In this document: in pieces, positions 3,028 to 55,581 of the stretch
Numbering within the stretch: the first letter of the stretch is position 1
Layout: every line of letters starts with the position of its first letter
DNA from: an uncultured Candidatus Saccharibacteria bacterium
GTDB lineage: Bacteria; Patescibacteriota; Minisyncoccia; UBA6257; 2-01-FULL-56-20
Direction of reading: 5' to 3'
DNA length: 64,000 nucleotides
Assembly (NCBI GenBank): GCA_964361595.1
Contig: CAYIAX010000002.1
Span: 7,722-71,721, forward strand
Position numbers and translations under genes: made by a program
The notes under the pieces: generated by a model
Told to the model about the DNA's origin: nothing
The model's input: the letters and a program-made list of their open reading frames with translations, nothing else
Database searches by the model: none

Positions 3028-4761
3028 ATGCCCATTTCCAATCAAAAAATCGCCCAGGTGCTTTACGAAATTGGGGAATATTTGGACATGCAAAAGGTGT
3101 CCTTTAAGCCGCGCGCTTATGAAAAGGCCGCTCAAGCGGTTGAAGGACTCGCCGGAAGCGTGGAGGAAATTTACCGCGAGGGCGGCATCAAGGCTTTAAA
3201 AGACATTCCGGGCGTCGGCGAATCAATTGCGGAGAAAATTGAGGAACTCATTAAGACCGGCAAAGTGAAATATTATGAAGGACTTAAGAAAAAAACACCG
3301 GTAAACCTCGGGGAACTCCGCGGCATTGAAGGCCTGGGGCCAAAATCAATTCAAAAGCTATATGAGGAGTTAGGCATTCGCAGTTTGGCGGATCTGGAGC
3401 GAGCGGCGCAAAGAGGAAAGATTGCCGGGCTCTCCGGTTTCGGCAAAAAAACGGAAGCAAATATTTTGAAGGGCATCGAATTTCTCAAGGGCTCGAGCGG
3501 GCGCGCAATTTTGGGTTTTGCCATGCCGCAGATAAATTCAATTGAGGAACAGCTTAAAAAGTTAAAGGAGGTGGAGAAACTTACGGTTGCGGGCTCCGCG
3601 CGCAGAAAAAAAGAAACAATCGGAGATATTGATATCCTCGTCGTTTCAACTAAACCGGAACCGATCATGGATTACTTTACAAGCATGGCTCAAGTTGTGC
3701 GCGTTTACGCGAAGGGCAGAACCAAGTCCTCGGTGCGGACGCGGATGGGATTGGATGTGGACTTGCGCATAGTGCCCAAGGAATCTTATGGCGCCGCCTT
3801 GAATTACTTCACGGGTTCTAAGGATCACAACGTCGCTCTGCGGCAGGTCGCTATTAAAAAGGGATATAAGCTCAACGAATACGGCTTGTTCAAAGTCGGC
3901 CGCGGCAAAGAAAAAATGGTTGCGGGCGCGACCGAGGAAGAGGTTTACGCCGCTTTGGGCCTCGACTACATAGAACCGGAACTGCGCGAGCATACCGGCG
4001 AAATCGAACTGGCGGCAAAGCACGCGCTGCCGAAGCTTATCGGTTACGGCGAAATTTTAGGGGACCTACAGGTGCAGACCGACTGGACGGACGGTTCGGC
4101 TTCGATCGAAAAAATGGTGGAGGAAGCGCGGCGGCGGAAACTCCAATATATTGCGATTACAGATCACACGAAGCGGCTTGCGATGACCGGCGGCCTCGAT
4201 GAAAAGCGTATTTTAAAGCAAATGGCGGAGATAGACCATCTCAATAAAAAATTAGGCGGGAGTTTTAAGATCCTCAAGGGAACCGAATGCGACATCTTAA
4301 AAGACGGCACGCTTGATTTGCCGGATGAAGTTTTGGCAAAGCTCGATTTTGTGGGCGCTTCCGTCCACTCTTTCTTCCACTTGCCGCGGGCGGAACAGAC
4401 CGAGCGGGTAAAACGCGCAATGCGAAATCCCCATGTGGACATGATTTTCCATCCTACTGGCAGAATCTTGAAGCGGCGCGAGGCTTGCGATCTTGATTTG
4501 GATGAGGTTGTCAAGGCCGCGAAGGCGACGAAAACACTGCTCGAAATTGATGCTTACCCGGACCGCTCGGACCTCAAAGATGAATATATAAGGAAAGCGG
4601 TCGAGGCCGGCGTGAAATTAGCCGTTGATTCCGACGCGCACGCTCCGTCCCATTATGAGTTCATTGATTATGGCGTGGCCCAAGCCAGGCGGGGCTGGGC
4701 GAAGCGTAAAGATATCGTGAATAGTTGGCCAGTCGAGAAAATGTTAGCTATGCTTAAGTGA
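3028..4761 (+). CDS. polX: DNA polymerase X family protein with a C-terminal PHP phosphoesterase domain
   Basis: N-terminal HhH motifs (GIGxxIAxKI, GLGPKSIQK), a pol-beta palm, and a C-terminal ITDHTKRLAMTGG PHP motif. 577 aa. Confidence 0.8.
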   Translation: MPISNQKIAQVLYEIGEYLDMQKVSFKPRAYEKAAQAVEGLAGSVEEIYREGGIKALKDIPGVGESIAEKIEELIKTGKVKYYEGLKKKTPVNLGELRGIEGLGPKSIQKLYEELGIRSLADLERAAQRGKIAGLSGFGKKTEANILKGIEFLKGSSGRAILGFAMPQINSIEEQLKKLKEVEKLTVAGSARRKKETIGDIDILVVSTKPEPIMDYFTSMAQVVRVYAKGRTKSSVRTRMGLDVDLRIVPKESYGAALNYFTGSKDHNVALRQVAIKKGYKLNEYGLFKVGRGKEKMVAGATEEEVYAALGLDYIEPELREHTGEIELAAKHALPKLIGYGEILGDLQVQTDWTDGSASIEKMVEEARRRKLQYIAITDHTKRLAMTGGLDEKRILKQMAEIDHLNKKLGGSFKILKGTECDILKDGTLDLPDEVLAKLDFVGASVHSFFHLPRAEQTERVKRAMRNPHVDMIFHPTGRILKRREACDLDLDEVVKAAKATKTLLEIDAYPDRSDLKDEYIRKAVEAGVKLAVDSDAHAPSHYEFIDYGVAQARRGWAKRKDIVNSWPVEKMLAMLK

Positions 4762-4876
4762 TGAATCCCGTTATAAAATCAAAAGAAATTACGCATCGTG
4801 CAGTAATATTTAAATATCGCCTAAATCGTTTGCAGTCGGGCAAGCGCCAGTTTGGTTTTCTGACGGGATGAATCCG
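4761..4876 (+). repeat. ATGA-bounded ~115-nt hairpin element, copy A. Termini are ATGAATCCCGTTA ... TAACGGGATGAATCC.
   Basis: The 5' ATGA overlaps the polX stop (aagTGA). The 3' ATGA contains the NUDIX start codon. About 19 bp terminal stem including G-U pairs. Confidence 0.55.
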
Positions 4877-5359
4877 AGCGAAAAACCAGAAAGAAGAACC
4901 CGGCGGGAGATCTCCGCCGGTATTATTGTTTTCCGGCGCACGCGCGACGGGCTGAAGTTCCTGCTTTTGTATCACGGGCATAATTACTGGAATTTCCCCA
5001 AGGGAAAAATCGAAAGCGAGGAGCGCAGCTTGGCCGCGGCTTTCCGGGAAACGCGCGAGGAGACGGGGCTAACGGCCCGCGATCTGCGTTTGCTCCCGGG
5101 TTTTCGCGTGAATGAGCGGTTTACTTTCAGGCGCGGGAACCAGAGTGTATTTAAAATCGTCATCTTCTTTTTAGCCGAGACCCGCAATCCGCGCATCCAG
5201 GTCTCCGCGGAGCATAACGGTTATGCCTGGTACCTCTTTGAAGATGCCAAGCGGACGCTCACGCGCTACAAAGACAGCGAACGCGTCTTGAAGACCGCTT
5301 ATGAATTCCTGCGCGCTCCCCGCAGGCCCCAAGCGGAAGAAAAGAAAGAACAAAAATGA
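4868..5359 (+). CDS. NUDIX hydrolase
   Basis: Nudix box GKIESEERSLAAAFRETREETGL. Confidence 0.75.
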   Translation: MNPSEKPERRTRREISAGIIVFRRTRDGLKFLLLYHGHNYWNFPKGKIESEERSLAAAFRETREETGLTARDLRLLPGFRVNERFTFRRGNQSVFKIVIFFLAETRNPRIQVSAEHNGYAWYLFEDAKRTLTRYKDSERVLKTAYEFLRAPRRPQAEEKKEQK

Positions 5360-5616
5360 GCAAATTCAGCGAAAGAGTTTTGAGCGTGGTCTCGAAGATC
5401 CCGCGCGGCCGGACGTTAACGTATAAAGAAGTCGCGCGGCGTGCGGGCAGTCCGCGCGCGTTCCGGGCGGTCGGAAATATTTTGAACTCTTATGATTCAA
5501 AGAAGATGAAAGTGCCCTGCCACCGCGTCATCCGTTCGGACGGCCAAAGCGGCGGTTACCGCTGGGGCGCGCGTAAAAAGCTAATTTTGTTGAAGAAAGA
5601 AAGAGCCGCTGCTTAA
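5356..5616 (+). CDS. ogt: Methylated-DNA--protein-cysteine methyltransferase, short form with only the DNA-binding and active-site domain
   Basis: Active-site motif VPCHRVIRSDG (PCHR) at the expected spacing. 86 aa, so no N-terminal domain. Confidence 0.6.
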   Translation: MSKFSERVLSVVSKIPRGRTLTYKEVARRAGSPRAFRAVGNILNSYDSKKMKVPCHRVIRSDGQSGGYRWGARKKLILLKKERAAA

Positions 5617-7261: not shown

Positions 7262-7588
7262 GGGGATGATTGGCTTCGATAGGTATGCGTCGTGAGCTGG
7301 CGAGCCGAGCGTGATCTCGTAAAACTCACATTCACAATAACTGCCAACTTCAAAGTTGCAGCTCCAGCCTACGCTTACGCGTAAGTTGGGATCGGCTAGC
7401 TTGGGTCTCTTAGGCTAATACCGGTCGTATACAAGGAGGCTAGTTCCGGACGATGGTTCTAATCCGGAGCAAAAATAAGAACCAATTCTGAGCAATCAGA
7501 ACTCGCCTTGAGTTTATCGAAGGGCTACGCTCGTAGAAGGTTCACCGATAGCATTTCCTAGACGCGGTTTCAACACCGCCATCTCCAC
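7262..7588 (+). ncRNA. ssrA: tmRNA (SsrA)
   Basis: The 5' GGGGAUGAUUGGCUUCGAUAGG pairs with the 3' ...GACGCGGUUUCAACACCGCCAUCUCCAC as a 7-bp acceptor stem. The T-arm GCGGUUUCAACACCGC is tRNA-like. An internal tag-like ORF ...GCC AAC UUC AAA GUU GCA GCU CCA GCC UAC GCU UAC GCG UAA is present. An extended -10 box TGCTAGAAT lies at 7245-7253. Confidence 0.85.
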
Positions 7589-7596
7589 TTAGAAAA

Positions 7597-21051: not shown

Positions 21052-21072
21052 TTGGTGCTGGAGAGGAGATTC
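21052..21072. repeat. 21-bp direct repeat duplicating the 3' end of tRNA-Leu (ttggtgctggagaggagattc), identical to 21363-21383
   Basis: Exact match to the T-loop-to-CCA segment of the tRNA about 310 bp away. This is a classic att-like flank. Confidence 0.8.
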
Positions 21073-21120
21073 CCGCCCATTGCAAATGGGCGAGCCTCGC
21101 CCATTTGCAATGGGCGGGAA
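21070..21120. repeat. Perfect 51-bp palindrome (ttcccgcccattgcaaatgggcgag g ctcgcccatttgcaatgggcgggaa)
   Basis: 25-bp arms. It abuts the direct repeat, lies downstream of the GIY-YIG gene and upstream of rnj. Confidence 0.8.
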
Positions 21121-21123
21121 CTC

Positions 21124-21363
21124 TTACTTAAAAAATTGTTTTAGTTTTCTTCGACCACCTTCGCTTTTCCAATATTTTTCGCGCTCCTTAGCTGAACCGA
21201 GATTGGAAACTTGTTCGGAATATAAAATCTTAAATGGTGTTCTATTTCTTGTTGCTTTTACTTTACCCAAGTTATGTTCCTGAAATCGCTTTATAATATT
21301 TTCCGAAAATCCCGTATAAGTCTTTCCATCTTTTAAGCTCTGAAGGATATATACAGTATACAT
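21124..21363 (-). CDS. GIY-YIG nuclease-domain protein (YhbQ/UPF0213-like, 79 aa)
   Basis: MYTVYILQSLKDGKTYTGFSENIIKRFQEHN matches GIY-x10-YIG plus the Arg/His/Asn core. It starts 1 nt after the tRNA 3' end. Confidence 0.75.
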   Translation of the reverse strand: MYTVYILQSLKDGKTYTGFSENIIKRFQEHNLGKVKATRNRTPFKILYSEQVSNLGSAKEREKYWKSEGGRRKLKQFFK

Positions 21364-21450
21364 TGGTGCTGGAGAGGAGATTCGAACTCCTATGGTCTTG
21401 CGACCGCTGGCTCCTGAAGCCAGTGCGTCTGCCAATTCCGCCACCCCAGC
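21364..21450 (-). tRNA. tRNA-Leu (anticodon CAG), class II with a long variable arm and encoded CCA
   Basis: Folded by hand: acceptor GCUGGGG/CUCCAGC, anticodon stem-loop CUGGC-UUCAGGA-GCCAG, T-arm AGGAG-UUCGAAU-CUCCU, discriminator A. Confidence 0.85.
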
Positions 21451-23256: not shown

Positions 23257-23469
23257 CTAAAGGACCAAATTCAGAATCGCCAAAGCGACGAAAGCGATGC
23301 CAAGCACGATTGTGGCGATGAAAATGAACTTTTCCAAACCGCGGCGGGTTTGGTAAAAACCCCCGCCTTCGCCGCCGAAGATGCCGGACAAACCGGCGGA
23401 GCGCTCTTGAAGCAAAATCAAAGCGATTAAGGCGATGGAGACGATTATGTGAGCGATGGCAAGAATCAT
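23257..23469 (-). CDS. secG: Preprotein translocase subunit SecG
   Basis: LLQERSAGLSGIFGGEGGGFYQTRRGLEKF. Two TM helices. Confidence 0.7.
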   Translation of the reverse strand: MILAIAHIIVSIALIALILLQERSAGLSGIFGGEGGGFYQTRRGLEKFIFIATIVLGIAFVALAILNLVL

Positions 23470-23578
23470 CCCGTTAGAAGCAGATCATCAATCTGTAAAG
23501 TTTTATTGACCCGAGGGCAGTGTTCATCTTTTGGTATTGGTGGATATTAAATTTGATTACTGCTTCTAACGGGATCAT
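23464..23578 (-). repeat. ATGA-bounded ~115-nt hairpin element, copy C (minus orientation). Termini are ATGATCCCGTTAGAAGCAG ... CTGCTTCTAACGGGATGATTC.
   Basis: The 5' ATGA overlaps the stop of the upstream minus-strand gene (aaaTGA). The 3' ATG is the secG start. 16-bp perfect stem plus a 5-bp extension. Confidence 0.55.
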
Positions 23579-23928
23579 TTTTTTGTGGCTAAGTGGATGA
23601 CCGCACCCGCGATTCCCAGCGCAATCGCCGCGTATAGGTAAGTAAGAATCCCTCCCATGGTAAGATTTGCCGACAAAAAGTCAAGCGCGAAAAGAAAAAC
23701 TACATTGATAATAATAAACCCCAGGCCGAGCGTAAGAATGATCACGGGACCCATGAGTAGGGTAAGAATCGGTTTTACAAAAATATTTAAGAGCGTAAAG
23801 ATGAGCGCCAAGACCAAGGTTTGTTCGAAATTTCCCGTGAGCGTGAATCCGGGCAAGCGACTGTTCATTAAGAGAAGTACGGTAGCGAAAAAACCAGTGG
23901 CGGTAATAACGCGGGCGAGGAAGTGCAT
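23575..23928 (-). CDS. Small 4-TM membrane protein (DUF360 / holin-4-like family)
   Basis: Four hydrophobic helices. 117 aa. Confidence 0.4.
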   Translation of the reverse strand: MHFLARVITATGFFATVLLLMNSRLPGFTLTGNFEQTLVLALIFTLLNIFVKPILTLLMGPVIILTLGLGFIIINVVFLFALDFLSANLTMGGILTYLYAAIALGIAGAVIHLATKK

Positions 23929-26927: not shown

Positions 26928-27341
26928 TTATTTGGATAGCTGGCGTAGCCAGCCGCCGAGCATCTTGCCGATCTCGTCCAATGGTTCAGATAAAATAATG
27001 TATTTTTTGTTGTCGAGCGATTTTATGCGCCAGGCGATTTCCAGGAAAAACTTCGCAAGGTTCAACTTGGCCGCCGCCTGCTCTATATAGGGATATTTTT
27101 TATCCCTCGGTAGAAAAATCGCGGTATATACCGATTCGATTGTTTCAATAAACAATGAATCTATTTTATCACCCAATGTATAACGGGATATTTTCGGGAT
27201 ATGAACGGTAAATTCATGCCAAATTTCATAAGCCCGAACGAGCCGCTCGATTATCGGCAGATTGAGGTTCCCGGGGGGGGGGTTACGTGGAATGAGTTTT
27301 GCATGGATTATGAAATTCAGAAACACTTTTGAGGAAATCAT
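26928..27341 (-). CDS. avd: Avd-like accessory variability determinant (four-helix-bundle, 23S-rRNA-IVS protein family). Encoded antisense to the RT, with a C10 homopolymer in its 5' region.
   Basis: ...YTLGDKIDSLFIETIESVYTAIFLP...LNLAKFFLEIAWRIKSLDNKKYIILSEPLDEIGKMLGGWLRQL is four-helix-bundle-like. The C-run at 27274-27283 encodes NPPPG. Confidence 0.55.
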   Translation of the reverse strand: MISSKVFLNFIIHAKLIPRNPPPGNLNLPIIERLVRAYEIWHEFTVHIPKISRYTLGDKIDSLFIETIESVYTAIFLPRDKKYPYIEQAAAKLNLAKFFLEIAWRIKSLDNKKYIILSEPLDEIGKMLGGWLRQLSK

Positions 27342-30030: not shown

Positions 30031-30125
30031 TAGCAATCAATTTCTAATTTCCAATTACTAATTTCCAAATGTGGTTACCGTGCGGCGTTTTGAAGATTAG
30101 AAATTGGATATTGGAAATTTAACTT

Positions 30126-31475
30126 ATGCTGCTTAAACTTTCCCGCTTTTTTGTTTACACCGCTGTTTTCAGCGTTGTTGTAGTTTTGGCGAGGACATTT
30201 TTCCCTTTCATCGGAGGCAAATACTATTTTTTCCGAATTTGCGTGGAGCTGGGGATAATATTTTTCGCCCTTTGGTGGGGGTTTGAAGCTTCAGCCGGAG
30301 AGGTAAAAAAGCTTTTCAAACCGTTGCTCAAAAATCCGCTTTTCATTCTGGTTTCAGTTTTCGCTATCGTTTTCGTGCTGGCTGCACTTTTTGCTGACGA
30401 TCCCAAAGTAGCTTTCTGGTCAAATTATGAGCGAGGGGAGGGCGGATTCCAAATGTTGCATTATTACGCTTTCTTCCTTTTGCTCGTATTGCTTTTTCGA
30501 GACGAGCAGAAATGGAAAACTCTTTTTGTGTATTCTTTGGTTGCAGCGGCCTTAATGATTGGTTACGGATTGATCGCGCAACTAGGTTCGACTGGGAGTA
30601 TAACTTTTATAAGTCCTTACGGAGCAGATCCTCCTCCTACTTTTTGGGGAAAGCTCGCATCTGCTAGATTTCAGGGTTCCCTGGGTAACCCCGCTTATGT
30701 AGCGCCGTATTTGATGTTCGCGATTTTTTTTGCTTTATATCTTTGGCTTGCGCCGCTGACAAAAAAAATCTGGAGCTGGCGCGGAGTCGGCTACATCGCA
30801 CTCGCCCTCTCCTTCCTTTTCTTTTTCGTTTTGAGCCAAACGCGCGGAGCGCTCTTGGGCTTGGGCGCCTCTTTGATCCTTTACTTTTTGATTCTCGCTC
30901 TTTCGCGGCAAAATTTCCGCAAACCCGCCTTGCTGGGCCTCGCGATTGTCCTCGTGGCGGGAGGGCTACTTATAGCCAATCGCAATTCCGGCTTCGTGCG
31001 CGCCTTGCCGGGCTCCAGGATTTTTAACATTTCTTTTGGAGAACAAACTGTAAAAACCCGGCTTTGGACCTGGGGTTCGGCGTGGCGCGGCTTCAAAGAT
31101 AGGCCGATTTTGGGCTGGGGGCCGGAAAATTTCAGCACGGTTTTCGACAAACACTTCGACATAAGACACTATATACCCGGCCAAAATTCAGAAACTTGGT
31201 TTGATCGCGCACACGGCGTTCTCTTTGACTACTTAGCAGAAACAGGGATCTTGGGACTTTTAGCCTACATCGGAATTTTTGCCGCTTTCGCTTGGGAATT
31301 CTTCAAAAATGGCTTGAGCAATGGGCGCTCGCCGGCCGCCGCCGCGCTTTTCCCGGCGATCTTGGGCGGTTACCTCGTGCAGGGGTTGGTGCTTTTCGAT
31401 GTGCTGCCGATTTACTTAAATATTTTTATCGTGCTCGCAATGAGCGTGTACATTTTTAGCCATGAATCCCGTTAG
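30126..31475 (+). CDS. O-antigen ligase/polymerase-family (Wzy_C-like) membrane protein
   Basis: At least 10 TM helices and an SQTRGALLGL loop motif. Confidence 0.55.
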   Translation: MLLKLSRFFVYTAVFSVVVVLARTFFPFIGGKYYFFRICVELGIIFFALWWGFEASAGEVKKLFKPLLKNPLFILVSVFAIVFVLAALFADDPKVAFWSNYERGEGGFQMLHYYAFFLLLVLLFRDEQKWKTLFVYSLVAAALMIGYGLIAQLGSTGSITFISPYGADPPPTFWGKLASARFQGSLGNPAYVAPYLMFAIFFALYLWLAPLTKKIWSWRGVGYIALALSFLFFFVLSQTRGALLGLGASLILYFLILALSRQNFRKPALLGLAIVLVAGGLLIANRNSGFVRALPGSRIFNISFGEQTVKTRLWTWGSAWRGFKDRPILGWGPENFSTVFDKHFDIRHYIPGQNSETWFDRAHGVLFDYLAETGILGLLAYIGIFAAFAWEFFKNGLSNGRSPAAAALFPAILGGYLVQGLVLFDVLPIYLNIFIVLAMSVYIFSHESR

Positions 31476-31575
31476 AAAATTAACAAAAATGTTAATCTCA
31501 CAAGCAAAAGTTTTTATCTGCAATAATTCCTTTCAGTCGAAAGGATGGCTTCGTAATTTTCTAACGGGATGAATC
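31461..31575 (+). repeat. ATGA-bounded ~115-nt hairpin element, copy B. Termini are ATGAATCCCGTTAGAAAATTA ... TAATTTTCTAACGGGATGAATCC.
   Basis: The 5' end encodes the last codons and stop of the upstream gene (cat gaa tcc cgt tag). The 3' ATG is the start of the 31569 ORF. 15-bp perfect stem. Confidence 0.55.
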
Positions 31576-32186
31576 CTGCCATTAAAAAAACAATCAGCAT
31601 CCTGATCGTCGCGGGGCTTGTGGCCGTGGCAATCTACGGCTCCATACTTCCGTACCGCAAATCCGGGGCCTTCATCGAGGCCATGCGCAGGTTAAACTCC
31701 GCCAAGTCGCTCGATGAATTCAAAACCATCATGTCGCGTCCGCTTGAGATGACTTCGCCGATCGGACAGGACGAACTTGTCCGCAACTTGGCGAGCGTAG
31801 TCACAAATCTAGTGGAACGCAACGGCCAAGGCAGGCCCGAATTTGTGGCCTCCGTGATTGAATATTTGCAAGGTTACTACGATCCAATTATAAGCTATGG
31901 GAAAGGCCCGAGTTTTTCCCAGAATCTTTACGTGTTGGGCATTTTGAACGAGATCGCGTTTTTGCAAACCCAAGATAAGGCTTATCTTGCGGCCGCCAAG
32001 AATTATTTCAGCCGCGGCCATGAGTTGGGCCCGCGGCGGCCGCAATTCCTCTATGGCCTTTTTGACGTATATCGAGCCGAAGGCGATACTCAAAAAGCGG
32101 TGGAAATCGCGAATCAAATCTTGACGTATTGGCCGAACGATACGCAGATCAAAAGCCTTTTAGGAGGTACGCCGCCGCAGCGTTAA
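31569..32186 (+). CDS. N-terminally anchored hypothetical protein
   Basis: One TM helix, then a helical soluble domain. 205 aa. Confidence 0.4.
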   Translation: MNPAIKKTISILIVAGLVAVAIYGSILPYRKSGAFIEAMRRLNSAKSLDEFKTIMSRPLEMTSPIGQDELVRNLASVVTNLVERNGQGRPEFVASVIEYLQGYYDPIISYGKGPSFSQNLYVLGILNEIAFLQTQDKAYLAAAKNYFSRGHELGPRRPQFLYGLFDVYRAEGDTQKAVEIANQILTYWPNDTQIKSLLGGTPPQR

Positions 32187-47903: not shown

Positions 47904-49988
47904 ATGAACGTCTACATCATTCCATTTTCCGAAGACGAGCTTGGCGATCAGCTGTTCAGCGATGCACAGGTGCTTGCTTGGAAACACACCGTGATCCTTT
48001 GGCGCAAGCTCAAGGCCGAGTGCGCGCAGCAAGGAATTCGGCTTCAGACGATTGACTTCTTTGACCCCAAGCGTGCCCAGCCAGACGACGCGCTCCTGGT
48101 TTTAAATCATCCGGAGGAAAGTTTTTGGTGGCGGTTGTATTACCTTTGGAAATACAGGAAATCGAAAGGTGGATTCGTTTGGCGAAAACGCAAAATATTT
48201 TTTGCGGTGCACGCTTATTTTAAAAGAAAAATTTTGCTGCAGCTGGAGGCGCCGGTTGTGGCTCCCGCCACTTACCGCCGGCTGCCGAGTTTGGCGAAAC
48301 TTTACACCGAGGCATATTTTATCGTCAACGACCTTCCTGAAAAGTTCGGCTATGTGGCGCCCGTTTACGACATTTACAACGGCCGGGACAAACGCGAGAT
48401 GATTAAAAAATATGCCGCTCTCGCCAAGGACAAATACTTGTGCATGATCAATGCGAACAACGCCCCGCACGAGTTCTGGGGATCGCTTTTAGGCGAACGC
48501 ATCAAGGCGATTAAATTTTTCAGCCGCTTCCCTGATTTTGATTTATATGGCTCCCGCTGGAATTGGCCCCCTCGACATCCGTGGTGGTGGTTTTGGCGAA
48601 GTTTTGTTAAAAAAGCCTGGCGCGGGGCGCCACCGGACAAACTCGAAACACTTTCAAGGTATAAATTCGCTTTGGTTTTTGAAAATTGCGCTTATCCCGG
48701 CTACGTGAGCGAGAAAATTTTCGACTGTTTCGTAAGCGGCGTTGTCCCTGTCTATCTCGGCGCGCCGGACATCCACGCGCACATTCCCGGCGATTGTTTT
48801 GTGGATTTCCGGCGCTTTTCTTCTTACGCGGCACTGGATGAATTTTTGAGATCATTGACCGAGCAGGATCTCGCGGCCTATCGTCGCGCGGCCTCCGAAT
48901 TTCTCCGCAGCGGGAAAGATCGGCCGTTTACACAGGCTTTTTTCGCAGAAAAACTTCTTGAAATCATTAACCCCGAGCTTCGGAAGCTTGCCGCCCAAGT
49001 CCCCCGGCCTCTGGTTTCAGTCGTTTTGCCCGCCTATAACGACGCTAAATACCTAAAAGGCGCAATCACAAGCGTGCTGGCGCAGACTTACGAAAACTGG
49101 GAGTTGGTAGTCGCCGACGACGGATCAACCGATAACACCAAAGCGGTGGCCAGTTTTTTTGGCGACAAGCGAATTCATTATTTTTACCAGGCAAACAAAG
49201 GCTTGGCATCAGCAAGGAATTTCGGTTTGGCGCACTGCCGCGGCAAGTATGTCGCGCTTTTGGATGCCGACGATCTCTTTTTGCCGGAAAAACTTGAGCG
49301 GCACGTTGCTTACCTCGAAAAACACCCGGAATGCGATTTAACCTACGACGAGTTGATATTTATAAGAGACGAGGAACCGGGAAAGTTTTGGAAAGTTATC
49401 GGCATTGAACATTTATCCGGCTTTTTGAAAGAGCCGTTTATCAAGATGGCCGGGCACTGCATCGGCCCCTCGGCGGCTTTTTTCCGGCGCGAGCTTTTTC
49501 AAGAATACGGCGGATTTCCGGATGGCTGGCGAAGGAATGAAGATTACTATTTCTGGTTGAAGCTGGCGGTGCGCGGCGCCTATTTTCAACATCTTAAAGA
49601 ACCGCTCACAATCTCGCGTTTGCGAGCGCAAAGCCTGTCAAGATCGGGTATTCACCTGAAAGAAGCGGCGGAATTAAATTTACAAATTTTCGACTGGCTC
49701 GACAAAGAACTCGCAAAAGATGATTTCGCGAGGGGCTACCTGCCGGATTTTCTTTCCGTCACGCGCCGTCGCCTCGCGCTTGGATATTTTATTTTACAAG
49801 ACAAAGAAAGCGGAATCCGAGAACTTAAAAAATGGCGTTACGGCTGGTTGTTGACTCCGTTCTTCCGTTTATTGCCGTCTCGTTTGCTCTCCTCGTTGCT
49901 TACTCGCCTCCGCGGCGCCCGAGAGAAATTTCTGTACCAGGAAACAGCTGGGCCGCTAGGAACAATTCCGCCGCCAGTTTTACATTAA
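47904..49988 (+). CDS. Bifunctional glycosyltransferase: N-terminal GT10 (fucosyltransferase-like) fused to a C-terminal GT2 domain
   Basis: N-terminal YKFALVFENCAYPGYVSEKIFD. C-terminal VSVVLPAYNDAKYLKGAITSVLAQTY...DDGSTD...DADD. Confidence 0.6.
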   Translation: MNVYIIPFSEDELGDQLFSDAQVLAWKHTVILWRKLKAECAQQGIRLQTIDFFDPKRAQPDDALLVLNHPEESFWWRLYYLWKYRKSKGGFVWRKRKIFFAVHAYFKRKILLQLEAPVVAPATYRRLPSLAKLYTEAYFIVNDLPEKFGYVAPVYDIYNGRDKREMIKKYAALAKDKYLCMINANNAPHEFWGSLLGERIKAIKFFSRFPDFDLYGSRWNWPPRHPWWWFWRSFVKKAWRGAPPDKLETLSRYKFALVFENCAYPGYVSEKIFDCFVSGVVPVYLGAPDIHAHIPGDCFVDFRRFSSYAALDEFLRSLTEQDLAAYRRAASEFLRSGKDRPFTQAFFAEKLLEIINPELRKLAAQVPRPLVSVVLPAYNDAKYLKGAITSVLAQTYENWELVVADDGSTDNTKAVASFFGDKRIHYFYQANKGLASARNFGLAHCRGKYVALLDADDLFLPEKLERHVAYLEKHPECDLTYDELIFIRDEEPGKFWKVIGIEHLSGFLKEPFIKMAGHCIGPSAAFFRRELFQEYGGFPDGWRRNEDYYFWLKLAVRGAYFQHLKEPLTISRLRAQSLSRSGIHLKEAAELNLQIFDWLDKELAKDDFARGYLPDFLSVTRRRLALGYFILQDKESGIRELKKWRYGWLLTPFFRLLPSRLLSSLLTRLRGAREKFLYQETAGPLGTIPPPVLH

Positions 49989-55071: not shown

Positions 55072-55476
55072 TTGCGAATGGATAAAAATCAAACAAAATT
55101 AGTTTATCCAGATTTATCCTATAAAGTTTCAGGGATTCTGTTCGCGGTTCACAATGAATTGGGCAGGTATTGCAACGAGAAACAATATTCAGATTGCATA
55201 GAAAAGCATTTTAAGAAATTTAATATTCCATATGAAAGAGAAAAGTTTCTGCCAGCTTCTTTTGAAGGCGAGCTAAAGGGAAGAAATAAAGTTGATTTTC
55301 TGGCGGATAATAAAATTATTGTTGAGGTGAAAGCAAAACGAGTTTTGGGACGGGAAGAGTATTACCAAACGAGACGATATTTGGAAGCAGAAAAGAAAAA
55401 ATTAGGAATTATCGCGAATTTTCGAGAAAAATATCTTCGACCAAGAAGAATTTTAAACTCCTCGGTCAGTTATTAG
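55072..55476 (+). CDS. GxxExxY-family protein (PD-(D/E)XK nuclease-like)
   Basis: YKVSGILFAVHNELG...EVKAK pattern. 134 aa. Flanked by imperfect direct repeats. Confidence 0.65.
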   Translation: MRMDKNQTKLVYPDLSYKVSGILFAVHNELGRYCNEKQYSDCIEKHFKKFNIPYEREKFLPASFEGELKGRNKVDFLADNKIIVEVKAKRVLGREEYYQTRRYLEAEKKKLGIIANFREKYLRPRRILNSSVSY

Positions 55477-55581
55477 CAATTCGAATTATTGGCATGAAAT
55501 TGGCATATCAGCATTTCCAGGGATAACTTAGCTATTAGCAATTCGCGTGATTGGCATAAAATTAGTATATTAGCATAACTT

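Follow-up and report, generated by a model that had tools for sequence, protein, structure and literature searches.

The question raised by the stretch of DNA analysed here (the window: 64 kb of contig CAYIAX010000002.1 from an uncultured Candidatus Saccharibacteria bacterium) is what to make of three short hairpin elements, copies A, B and C, each of which supplies the start codon of the gene behind it. A preliminary description of the sequence had offered two explanations, a cis-regulatory RNA hairpin and a mobile element resembling MITEs (miniature inverted-repeat transposable elements). We consider it probable that the three hairpins are non-autonomous, MITE-like members, without an open reading frame (ORF) for a mobility protein, of a mobile family found throughout the candidate phyla radiation (CPR), the full form of which is a cassette of 276–288 bp that encodes a GIY-YIG nuclease. 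Two features had been missed in the preliminary description, namely that the element's termini coincide with the first and the last codons of a gene for a 94-aa GIY-YIG nuclease, and that the family is spread across the CPR.

Within the window, all three copies share a terminal inverted repeat of at least 14 bp, ATCCCGTTAGAA...TTCTAACGGGAT, and core ends ATCCCG...CGGGAT, and their near-equal length is as first described (cores of 105, 108 and 105 nt; Table 1). Of the 11-mer TCCCGTTAGAA, the window has four exact occurrences and two that differ by one mismatch, all of them at the six arm positions, where our own arithmetic gives about 0.03 exact occurrences by chance, so that the termini are not ordinary frequent k-mers of this genome. 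No convincing fourth copy was found in the window by a search allowing up to three mismatches per arm; the candidates at 27084–27194, 48311–48416 and 40362 were chance matches within coding sequence. Pairing of the arms spans 16–19 bp, with 9+9 pairs, one mismatch and two G–U pairs in copy A, arms of 23 nt matching at 91% in copy B and arms of 17 nt matching at 100% in copy C. On the sense strand, folding z-scores amount to -2.8 (A), -5.4 (B) and -3.7 (C), and the good folding of copy A is limited to this strand. The interiors had been taken as unrelated, which does not hold for copies A and C: these form one subfamily, in which the interior folds into a hairpin whose loop reads CAGTCG, equally far from the 3' end in both, and a frame of 36 codons is open. 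None of the window copies encodes a GIY-YIG domain, their sole frames being 34–36 codons long and without a recognisable domain.

Full-length versions were found by looking for unpaired termini near short elements in other genomes (loci of compared genomes carry L-numbers). In L110 and L108 these versions measure 277–280 nt, and the protein that they encode has 94 aa (MNPVRDDEYYYVYVLRS...GMGKRFLKNRLKRFLSLTG followed by a stop codon) and matches the GIY-YIG domain PF01541 with E = 1e-16. The left terminus ATGAATCCCGTTAGA encodes its N-terminus, M-N-P-V-R, and the right terminus TCTAACGGGATGA its C-terminus, (S)-L-T-G-stop; the first and last codons of the nuclease gene are the inverted repeats themselves. 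A protein search returned 2296 homologous clusters, and among the best 120 of these 2296, 102 are 93–95 aa long, 77 start with MNPVRD and 90 end with FLSLTG. By scanning metagenomes for full-length forms with two peptide motifs we obtained 563 confirmed stretches and examined 80 loci, in all of which the terminus pair lies 276–288 nt apart, with flanks that mostly read ATGA on the left and GAA on the right (77 loci with a readable flank). The nearest solved structures in a profile search are those of the UPF0213 proteins 1zg2 (E = 7e-11) and 1ywl (1e-5), followed by SLX1 (1e-3; structures 7wme and 7cq2), the E values from UPF0213 to SLX1 ranging from 7e-11 to 6.5e-3. The columns that hold the catalytic Tyr, Arg and Glu do not vary (invariant residues: Y13, Y24, G26, R32 and E58), and the protein of 93–95 aa comprises the catalytic domain and a short basic tail, without a separate DNA-binding domain.

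Short and full-length forms have an inverted repeat of 14 bp in common, with pairing that collapses at position 15. Pairs 13 and 14 covary, remaining Watson–Crick in 93–97% of cases, and the full-length repeats display compensatory double changes (AGAGAC/GTCTCT, AGAGAT/ATCTCT, AGAGGC/GCCTCT, AGAGCC/GGCTCT, ATCACG/CGTGAT and ACCCCG/CGGGGT), so that covariation of the stem, one of the checks proposed at the outset, was indeed found. The stems of 15–21 bp described before are real, with 16–19 bp in the window, but they represent the long end of the family range, since the ungapped repeat family-wide is 14 bp. Repeat position 12 is diagnostic, with AGAA/TTCT in short elements and AGAG/CTCT in most full-length ones. 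In several subfamilies, nhmmer similarity between short and full-length forms exceeds the 14-bp repeat, extending over 55–66 nt at the 5' end and over about 45 nt at most at the 3' end. Termini and flanks are common to the short copies and the 276–288-bp cassette; that its protein mobilises either form is a prediction. A 312-nt composite is present at L049:7263-7575, where a short element (CCCCGTTAGAAATC...AATTTCTAACGGGG) is nested in an element of the CGCGATC subfamily.

For the distribution of the short elements, one genome per GTDB species was scanned with a symmetric terminus pattern that left flanks and interior unconstrained. As the pattern itself fixed repeat positions 1–9 and 11–12, their invariance in the short set is imposed, and the independent test of terminus invariance is provided by the full-length set alone. 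The pattern matches at least 120 loci, nearly all of them in metagenome-assembled genomes (MAGs) of Patescibacteria/CPR, where about 2 would be expected by chance (own arithmetic), and the lineages among the matches listed are Nomura-, Doudna-, Kaiser-, Kerfeld-, Levyi-, Lipton-, Sungii- and Saccharibacteria as well as Paceibacterota. Further copies therefore exist well beyond this genome, and with termini matched across many CPR phyla the element is not a genome-local repeat. A few matches carry labels from outside the CPR, namely L014 and L062 in Omnitrophota MAGs, the former with ATAAA instead of ATGRA in its flanks, and L034 in a MAG of Gammaproteobacteria; a homologue of the GIY-YIG protein (P0029) is labelled Syntrophomonadaceae. 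The copies in the MAGs labelled Omnitrophota and Gammaproteobacteria could reflect mis-binning or genuine transfer out of the CPR. Searches of IMG/VR for viral carriage gave 0 matches with the short and the long pattern alike.

The flanks, which the scan had left free, define where the element sits. In 114 orientable short copies, on which all statistics of the anatomy are based, the left flank reads ATGR and the right flank GRA, which together give a direct repeat, ATGRA, and this overlaps the AT at either end of the inverted repeat. Both sides agree in the variable base in 98 of the 114 copies, and 17 of the 24 copies with a left G are G–G. Since the direct repeat overlaps the AT ends, the length of the target-site duplication can be stated only as 2–5 bp, the minimal duplication being GR, inside AT-GR-A. 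The elements had been called ATGA-bounded, of which the direct repeat itself stands, but its sequence is ATGRA. A longer duplication, ATGAATCC, seen in copies A and C and in L086 (no orthologue of copy C), does not clearly exceed what chance would give.

The sequence of the right flank has codon periodicity, its phase being that of the ATG, and an ORF of at least 50 codons begins at the right ATG in 111 of the 114 copies. In the window this ATG is the start codon of the NUDIX gene, of secG and of the ORF at 31569, exactly as first proposed. Family-wide, the genes downstream are diverse (186 Pfam families in 150 proteins, including glycosyltransferases, SSB, topoisomerase, FtsW and ClpP). A same-strand upstream ORF that ends nearby is present in only 52 of the 114 copies; of these 52, the TGA in ATGA provides the stop for 14 and the TAG in CGTTAG for 12. 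With so few upstream stops at ATGA, the constant feature is therefore the start codon and not a stop/start overlap. In the window, the claim that the upstream stop codon lies in the 5' ATGA is borne out by copy B, but not by copy A, where the stop of polX and the left ATGA have one base in common (GTGATGA), and not by copy C, where the Wzy_C ORF, in a frame different from that of the left ATGA, runs on to a TAG inside the element. The idea of a MITE-like element with a duplicated ATGA target was essentially right; it has to be amended in that the start codon within ATGRA is what remains constant and stop/start junctions are the minority. The left repeat is the start of the element's own frame and the right repeat restores the host ATG, which the TGA of the element overlaps as ATGA, while the conserved terminus offers stop codons in two frames (TGA and TAG) to upstream genes that formerly overlapped the start.

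Two further observations concern these start sites. In about 900 long ORFs of the CPR loci, a crude set of gene starts contaminated by element-linked ones, no G-rich Shine–Dalgarno signal is seen, and the second codon is AAN in about 31%. Tandem arrays of two elements with a single common ATGA (...CTAACGGGATGAATCCCGTTAG...) are found in L013, L066, L167, L170, L200 and L201; the sequence at their junction is nearly palindromic around GA, which makes the centre asymmetric, and it could resemble an excised element with its ends joined.

Evidence for mobility comes from empty sites, from dispersed copies and from reversals. Empty sites had been named as a check and were found in relatives: the polX–NUDIX junction of L021 reads CTTAAATGACC, a direct ATGA overlap without insert, in front of a NUDIX gene 64% identical to that of the window, and one orthologous gene is empty in L122 (ATGAA), L023 and L115 (both ATGTC) and L162, yet has a full-length cassette in L132, L138, L144 and L159. 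In L046, two short copies with 96% identity lie at a distance of 5.9 kb from each other, and their flanks are unrelated. The short subfamily CGCGATC...GATCGCGAYCTG comprises 25 copies of 112–124 nt, which lie before 23 unrelated genes in many lineages. According to an intrinsic polarity marker, 55 short copies are co-oriented with the host gene and 7 are reversed, the reversed ones retaining the same flanks, and full-length and short forms coexist and even abut with one common ATGA (L170, L110 and L108). The elements share with prokaryotic MITEs their small size without a transposase gene, terminal inverted repeats, a target-site duplication and dispersed, polymorphic copies (3 in 64 kb, at least 120 loci, empty sites in relatives).

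The short elements might instead be remnants of full-length cassettes that decayed in place by independent internal deletions and never moved on their own. Streamlined genomes tend to shed DNA by deletion, and such decay would account for an orthologous start that is full-length in L155 and short in L010, L079 and L094, for the strong co-orientation bias of the short elements and for the trace of a C-terminus-like coding sequence, ...QSGKR...FLTG-stop, that can be read directly in copy A. We nevertheless regard it as unlikely, as it leaves unexplained how one short subfamily of uniform architecture came to lie before 23 unrelated genes in many phyla, why the two 96%-identical copies occupy unrelated sites of one contig, why seven short copies are reversed when the flank pattern of a reversed insertion occurs in 0 of the 77 full-length copies with readable flanks, and why the two forms differ at repeat position 12. 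Empty sites, near-identical dispersed copies, subfamily spread and reversals, taken together, therefore favour MITE-like derivatives that spread independently over purely in-place decay.

The hairpins also bear on translation of the host gene. A frame starting at the duplicated left ATG spans the short element in 32 of 96 copies, compared with 10.8% when interiors are shuffled (about threefold), and in all three window copies. The stop of such spanning frames is either a TGA in overlap with the host ATG or a TAA that precedes it by 4 nt. Their excess over chance suggests that translational coupling keeps the host gene expressed. We infer that this coupling is a mitigation retained by selection and not the reason for the element to exist. 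The opposite view, in which the hairpin is a host cis-regulatory RNA that sequesters the downstream start as a coupler or insulator and the relation to the nuclease is secondary, finds the host ATG within the stem in every copy, and can call on the 55:7 orientation bias, on the excess of spanning mini-ORFs and on the sense-strand folding of copy A; it is, however, difficult to reconcile with seven reversed copies having the same flanks, with presence/absence polymorphism at orthologous genes, with functionally unrelated downstream genes, with interiors that vary between subfamilies and with a nuclease ORF bounded by the same termini. The U–G pairs of copy A, originally put forward as an argument for a structured RNA, lose this meaning family-wide, where G–U does not exceed A–C on the sense strand by any consistent bias (7:5 in short stems, 7:16 in full-length stems). 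Nor does Rfam recognise the hairpins: a search at gathering thresholds gave only the tmRNA and one tRNA in the window and only rRNA and tRNA in L110, L079 and L094, and searches of the three copies at E<=1 gave noise only. A dedicated cis-regulatory RNA is accordingly not supported as the primary nature of the hairpins, and we judge it quite improbable, with coupling as a statistically supported side effect.

Other functional classes were considered for the same sequences and rejected. No CUGANGA/GAAA core in the right arrangement, as in self-cleaving ribozymes of the hammerhead or twister type, was visible by eye, and Rfam gave no such match. For a leaderless mRNA promoter, the sequence TTCTAACGGG before the ATG is unlike a -10 box, and a scan of 4600–5000 yielded neither a promoter-like site nor, within copy A, a site resembling an intrinsic terminator.

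With a similarly low probability, the elements could be moved by an unrelated enzyme encoded elsewhere (a conventional transposase or host recombination) with the GIY-YIG gene as a passenger or active in homing only, for which one can cite that the 94-aa protein has no separate DNA-binding domain, that the window has three short copies and no full-length one and that we know of no GIY-YIG transposase, but against which stand the surroundings of 148 short elements, about 0.96 Mb of CPR DNA in all, which hold no conventional transposase with these termini and no longer same-terminus forms except those of 277–312 nt, the abundance of forms bearing GIY-YIG (563 confirmed stretches, 2296 protein clusters), the inverted repeat being the nuclease's own first and last codons, and the conserved catalytic residues.

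We propose a model in which the GIY-YIG protein would make the staggered cuts that move full-length and short copies alike. As a structure-specific nuclease it might recognise abutted or extruded inverted repeats, leaving host repair or ligation to finish the move. SLX1, a structure-specific endonuclease, has branched and hairpin DNA as its substrates; if the nuclease preferred hairpin or cruciform DNA in the manner of SLX1, this would account for the inverted repeats being needed. Overhangs of 2 nt at the 3' end would be turned into the GR duplication in AT-GR-AT, which would be re-created at both junctions and permit precise excision and re-insertion; the minimal duplication GR fits the 2-nt 3' overhangs that GIY-YIG homing enzymes leave (PMC2988022). 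Short copies would have arisen by internal deletion first and would then have spread independently. Ribosomes starting at the left ATG would enter the 5' arm and melt the stem that sequesters the true host start, so that host expression survives; in a third of the copies, all three window copies among them, these ribosomes would terminate at the host start or 4 nt before it, which would constitute the coupling. In full-length copies the nuclease gene would borrow the host translation start and hand ribosomes on via ATGA. A stronger version, in which the 276–288-bp cassette is an autonomous transposon, the 94-aa nuclease of SLX1/UPF0213 type its transposase, insertion start-codon-specific and the window MITEs its progeny, is put forward tentatively: it may be correct, but we stop somewhat short of favouring it. 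To our knowledge, such a cassette would be by far the smallest autonomous transposon.

Several points weigh against a mobile family driven by this nuclease. Nuclease and transposition activity of the 94-aa protein are predicted, and we are aware of no GIY-YIG protein that acts as a transposase. With no full-length copy of the family in the 64-kb window, a local autonomous partner is unseen. Because of the difference at repeat position 12, the short elements are not recent derivatives of the full-length copies sampled. Orthologous genes often have different element types at the same start (L010, L079, L094 and L155; L055, L066, L078 and L103), which could indicate hot spots, or ancient insertions and turnover instead of repeated transposition. 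A crude count of unoccupied ATGRA in the same loci gives about 369 at gene starts and 4818 within genes, with at most 789 in intergenic DNA, which is over-called; in view of these counts, start-codon occupancy of 97% is higher than ATGRA preference combined with purging of genic insertions would predict. The excess might come about because initiation regions are truly targeted, because selection at the level of the element favours expression, or because an essential start next to it shields the element from deletion.

How the family relates to known systems can be stated feature by feature. The free-standing GIY-YIG homing genes of T-even phages (seg, mobE) show start/stop overlaps with their neighbours (UAAUGA for mobE) and hairpins at translation starts (PMC2988022), and the CPR cassette resembles this 'intronless homing' in being a selfish GIY-YIG gene between host genes, with codon overlaps that suggest translational coupling. 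It differs in that its protein of about 94 aa is the catalytic domain only, whereas I-TevI and the Seg proteins have a separate DNA-binding domain as well (about 200–250 aa for seg-like enzymes), in its 14-bp terminal inverted repeats and short direct repeat, in its occurrence at many unrelated start codons per genome together with ORF-less miniature derivatives, and in being chromosomal, with 0 matches in IMG/VR. Correia elements of Neisseria and the RUP, ERIC and Nezha MITEs are similar in size (100–150 bp), in hairpin-forming terminal repeats, in a short target duplication and in dispersed, co-transcribed copies. Their repeat sequence is another one, however, the target is ATGRA on a start codon as opposed to TA for Correia, the element with the same termini encodes a GIY-YIG nuclease and not a DDE transposase, and conservation extends across a superphylum and not a genus; the defining motifs of Correia elements are absent. 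REPIN/RAYT systems are comparable as inverted hairpin doublets of about 100 nt that lie outside genes and are tied to a small nuclease-type protein. The CPR elements, in contrast, are fixed on start codons, each with a flanking direct repeat, and this assignment was rejected, there being no GTAG/CGTC head (the termini are ATCCCGTTAGA) and the associated protein being GIY-YIG and not an HUH Y1 RAYT. Rickettsia palindromic elements are likewise short palindromic mobile elements at tolerated positions in reduced genomes, but they lie in frame inside coding sequence and become part of the protein, whereas the CPR elements lie at the start codon, outside the host protein. An integron attC site was discarded as well, since the core order is reversed (GTTAGAA ... 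TTCTAAC compared with RYYYAAC ... GTTRRRY) and the neighbours are housekeeping genes without integron context. UPF0213- and SLX1-type proteins are akin to the encoded nuclease in profile and in the conserved catalytic Tyr, Arg and Glu; we know of no report of a mobile-element role, an inverted-repeat boundary or a start-codon location for UPF0213 proteins. Neither Rfam nor the literature searched contains a description of the element family, although an earlier description elsewhere is possible. We regard the family as new and kindred to MITEs and free-standing homing endonuclease genes, with a credible chance that it represents a new class of transposon.

Small GIY-YIG genes occur in other settings in the CPR as well. 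Sparse GIY-YIG ORFs have been reported in non-intron insertions of CPR rRNA genes (PMC11270868). A second, different GIY-YIG cassette lies in the window at 21053–21450 (-): tRNA-Leu(CAG) at 21364–21450 is followed directly after the CCA by a 79-aa ORF at 21124–21363 (MYTVYILQS...), then by a perfect 25-nt palindrome at 21070–21120 and by the 17-nt repeat of the tRNA 3' end, TCTCCTCTCCAGCACCA, at 21053–21069, which looks like a nuclease cassette inserted at the 3' end of a tRNA with target duplication. Small GIY-YIG ORFs inside or just after tRNA genes are also found at L005:~4450-4700, L084:~5200-5500 and L017:~5330-5560, with a part of the tRNA duplicated on the other side. For L005 and L084 the duplicated part is the tRNA's 5' half; the ORF of L017 begins at the 3' end of the tRNA. 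Small GIY-YIG genes may thus form a general class of site-specific selfish cassettes in the CPR, with several target types.

The coordinates of the three copies, of their frames and repeats and of the adjoining host genes are collected in Table 1.

Table 1. The three hairpin elements, their internal frames and direct repeats, and the adjoining genes (positions in the window)
Feature	Position	Strand	Remarks
Copy A core	4765..4869	+	105 nt; ATCCCGTTATAAAATCAAA ... TTTGGTTTTCTGACGGGAT; short, ORF-less, MITE-like
Copy A mini-ORF	4761..4871	+	36 codons, MNPVIKSKEITHRAVIFKYRLNRLQSGKRQFGFLTG, then stop; from left duplicated ATG to TGA overlapping NUDIX ATG (4868-4870)
Copy A direct repeat	4761-4768 and 4868-4875	+	ATGAA(TCC), read from sequence
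polX, upstream of copy A	3028..4761	+	pol-beta domains and PHP; stop TGA 4759-4761
NUDIX hydrolase gene, downstream of copy A	4868..5359	+	start codon is the element's right ATG
Copy B core	23468..23575	- (ATG orientation)	108 nt; ATGATCCCGTTAGAAGCAG ... CTGCTTCTAACGGGATGATTC
Copy B mini-ORF	23474..23578	-	34 codons; from left ATG 23578-23576 to TAA 23476-23474 within TTCTAACGGG, 4 nt before secG ATG
PF04020 (DUF360/holin_4_2) gene, upstream of copy B	23575..23928	-	stop TGA 23577-23575, part of the left ATGA
secG, downstream of copy B	23257..23469	-	start codon is the element's right ATG
Copy C core	31466..31570	+	105 nt; ATCCCGTTAGAAAATTA ... TAATTTTCTAACGGGAT
Copy C mini-ORF	31462..31572	+	36 codons, MNPVRKLTKMLISQAKVFICNNSFQSKGWLRNFLTG, then stop; terminal TGA overlaps downstream ATG
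Copy C direct repeat	31462-31469 and 31569-31576	+	ATGAATCC
Wzy_C O-antigen-ligase-like gene, upstream of copy C	30126..31475	+	enters the element; stop TAG 31473-31475 within conserved CGTTAG
205-aa membrane/TPR-like ORF, downstream of copy C	31569..32186	+	start codon is the element's right ATG

The contigs stem from a Hainich groundwater 0.1-um metagenome. Apart from the hairpins, the window contains a cluster of tandem and inverted 14–17-nt repeats at 30038–30119 (CAATTTCTAATTTC / CAATTACTAATTTC and their complements), which lies just upstream of the Wzy_C start and may be an operator or promoter region. Further features are the tmRNA gene at 7262–7590 (Rfam RF00023, 114 bits) and, at 55468–55576, two direct repeats of 47 nt, AGTTATTAGCAATTCGAATTATTGGCATGAAATTGGCATATCAGCAT, which are 83% identical and spaced by 62 nt.

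If the GIY-YIG protein does move these elements, the known transposase chemistries would gain a nuclease class, and DNA transposons a new enzymatic class; this would also define, at about 280 bp, a minimal selfish gene persisting in the most streamlined bacterial genomes known. The family is at the same time a natural system for near-harmless insertion, which combines a duplicated start codon, stop codons in two frames and a stem that translation can melt. In CPR MAGs it is a recurrent source of gene-calling errors: MNPV... mini-ORFs are called spuriously, starts are shifted, and upstream genes have their end within the element. The precise targeting of ATGRA might perhaps be of use as a small site-specific nuclease or insertion system, and the family offers a CPR-wide marker for horizontal exchange between phyla.

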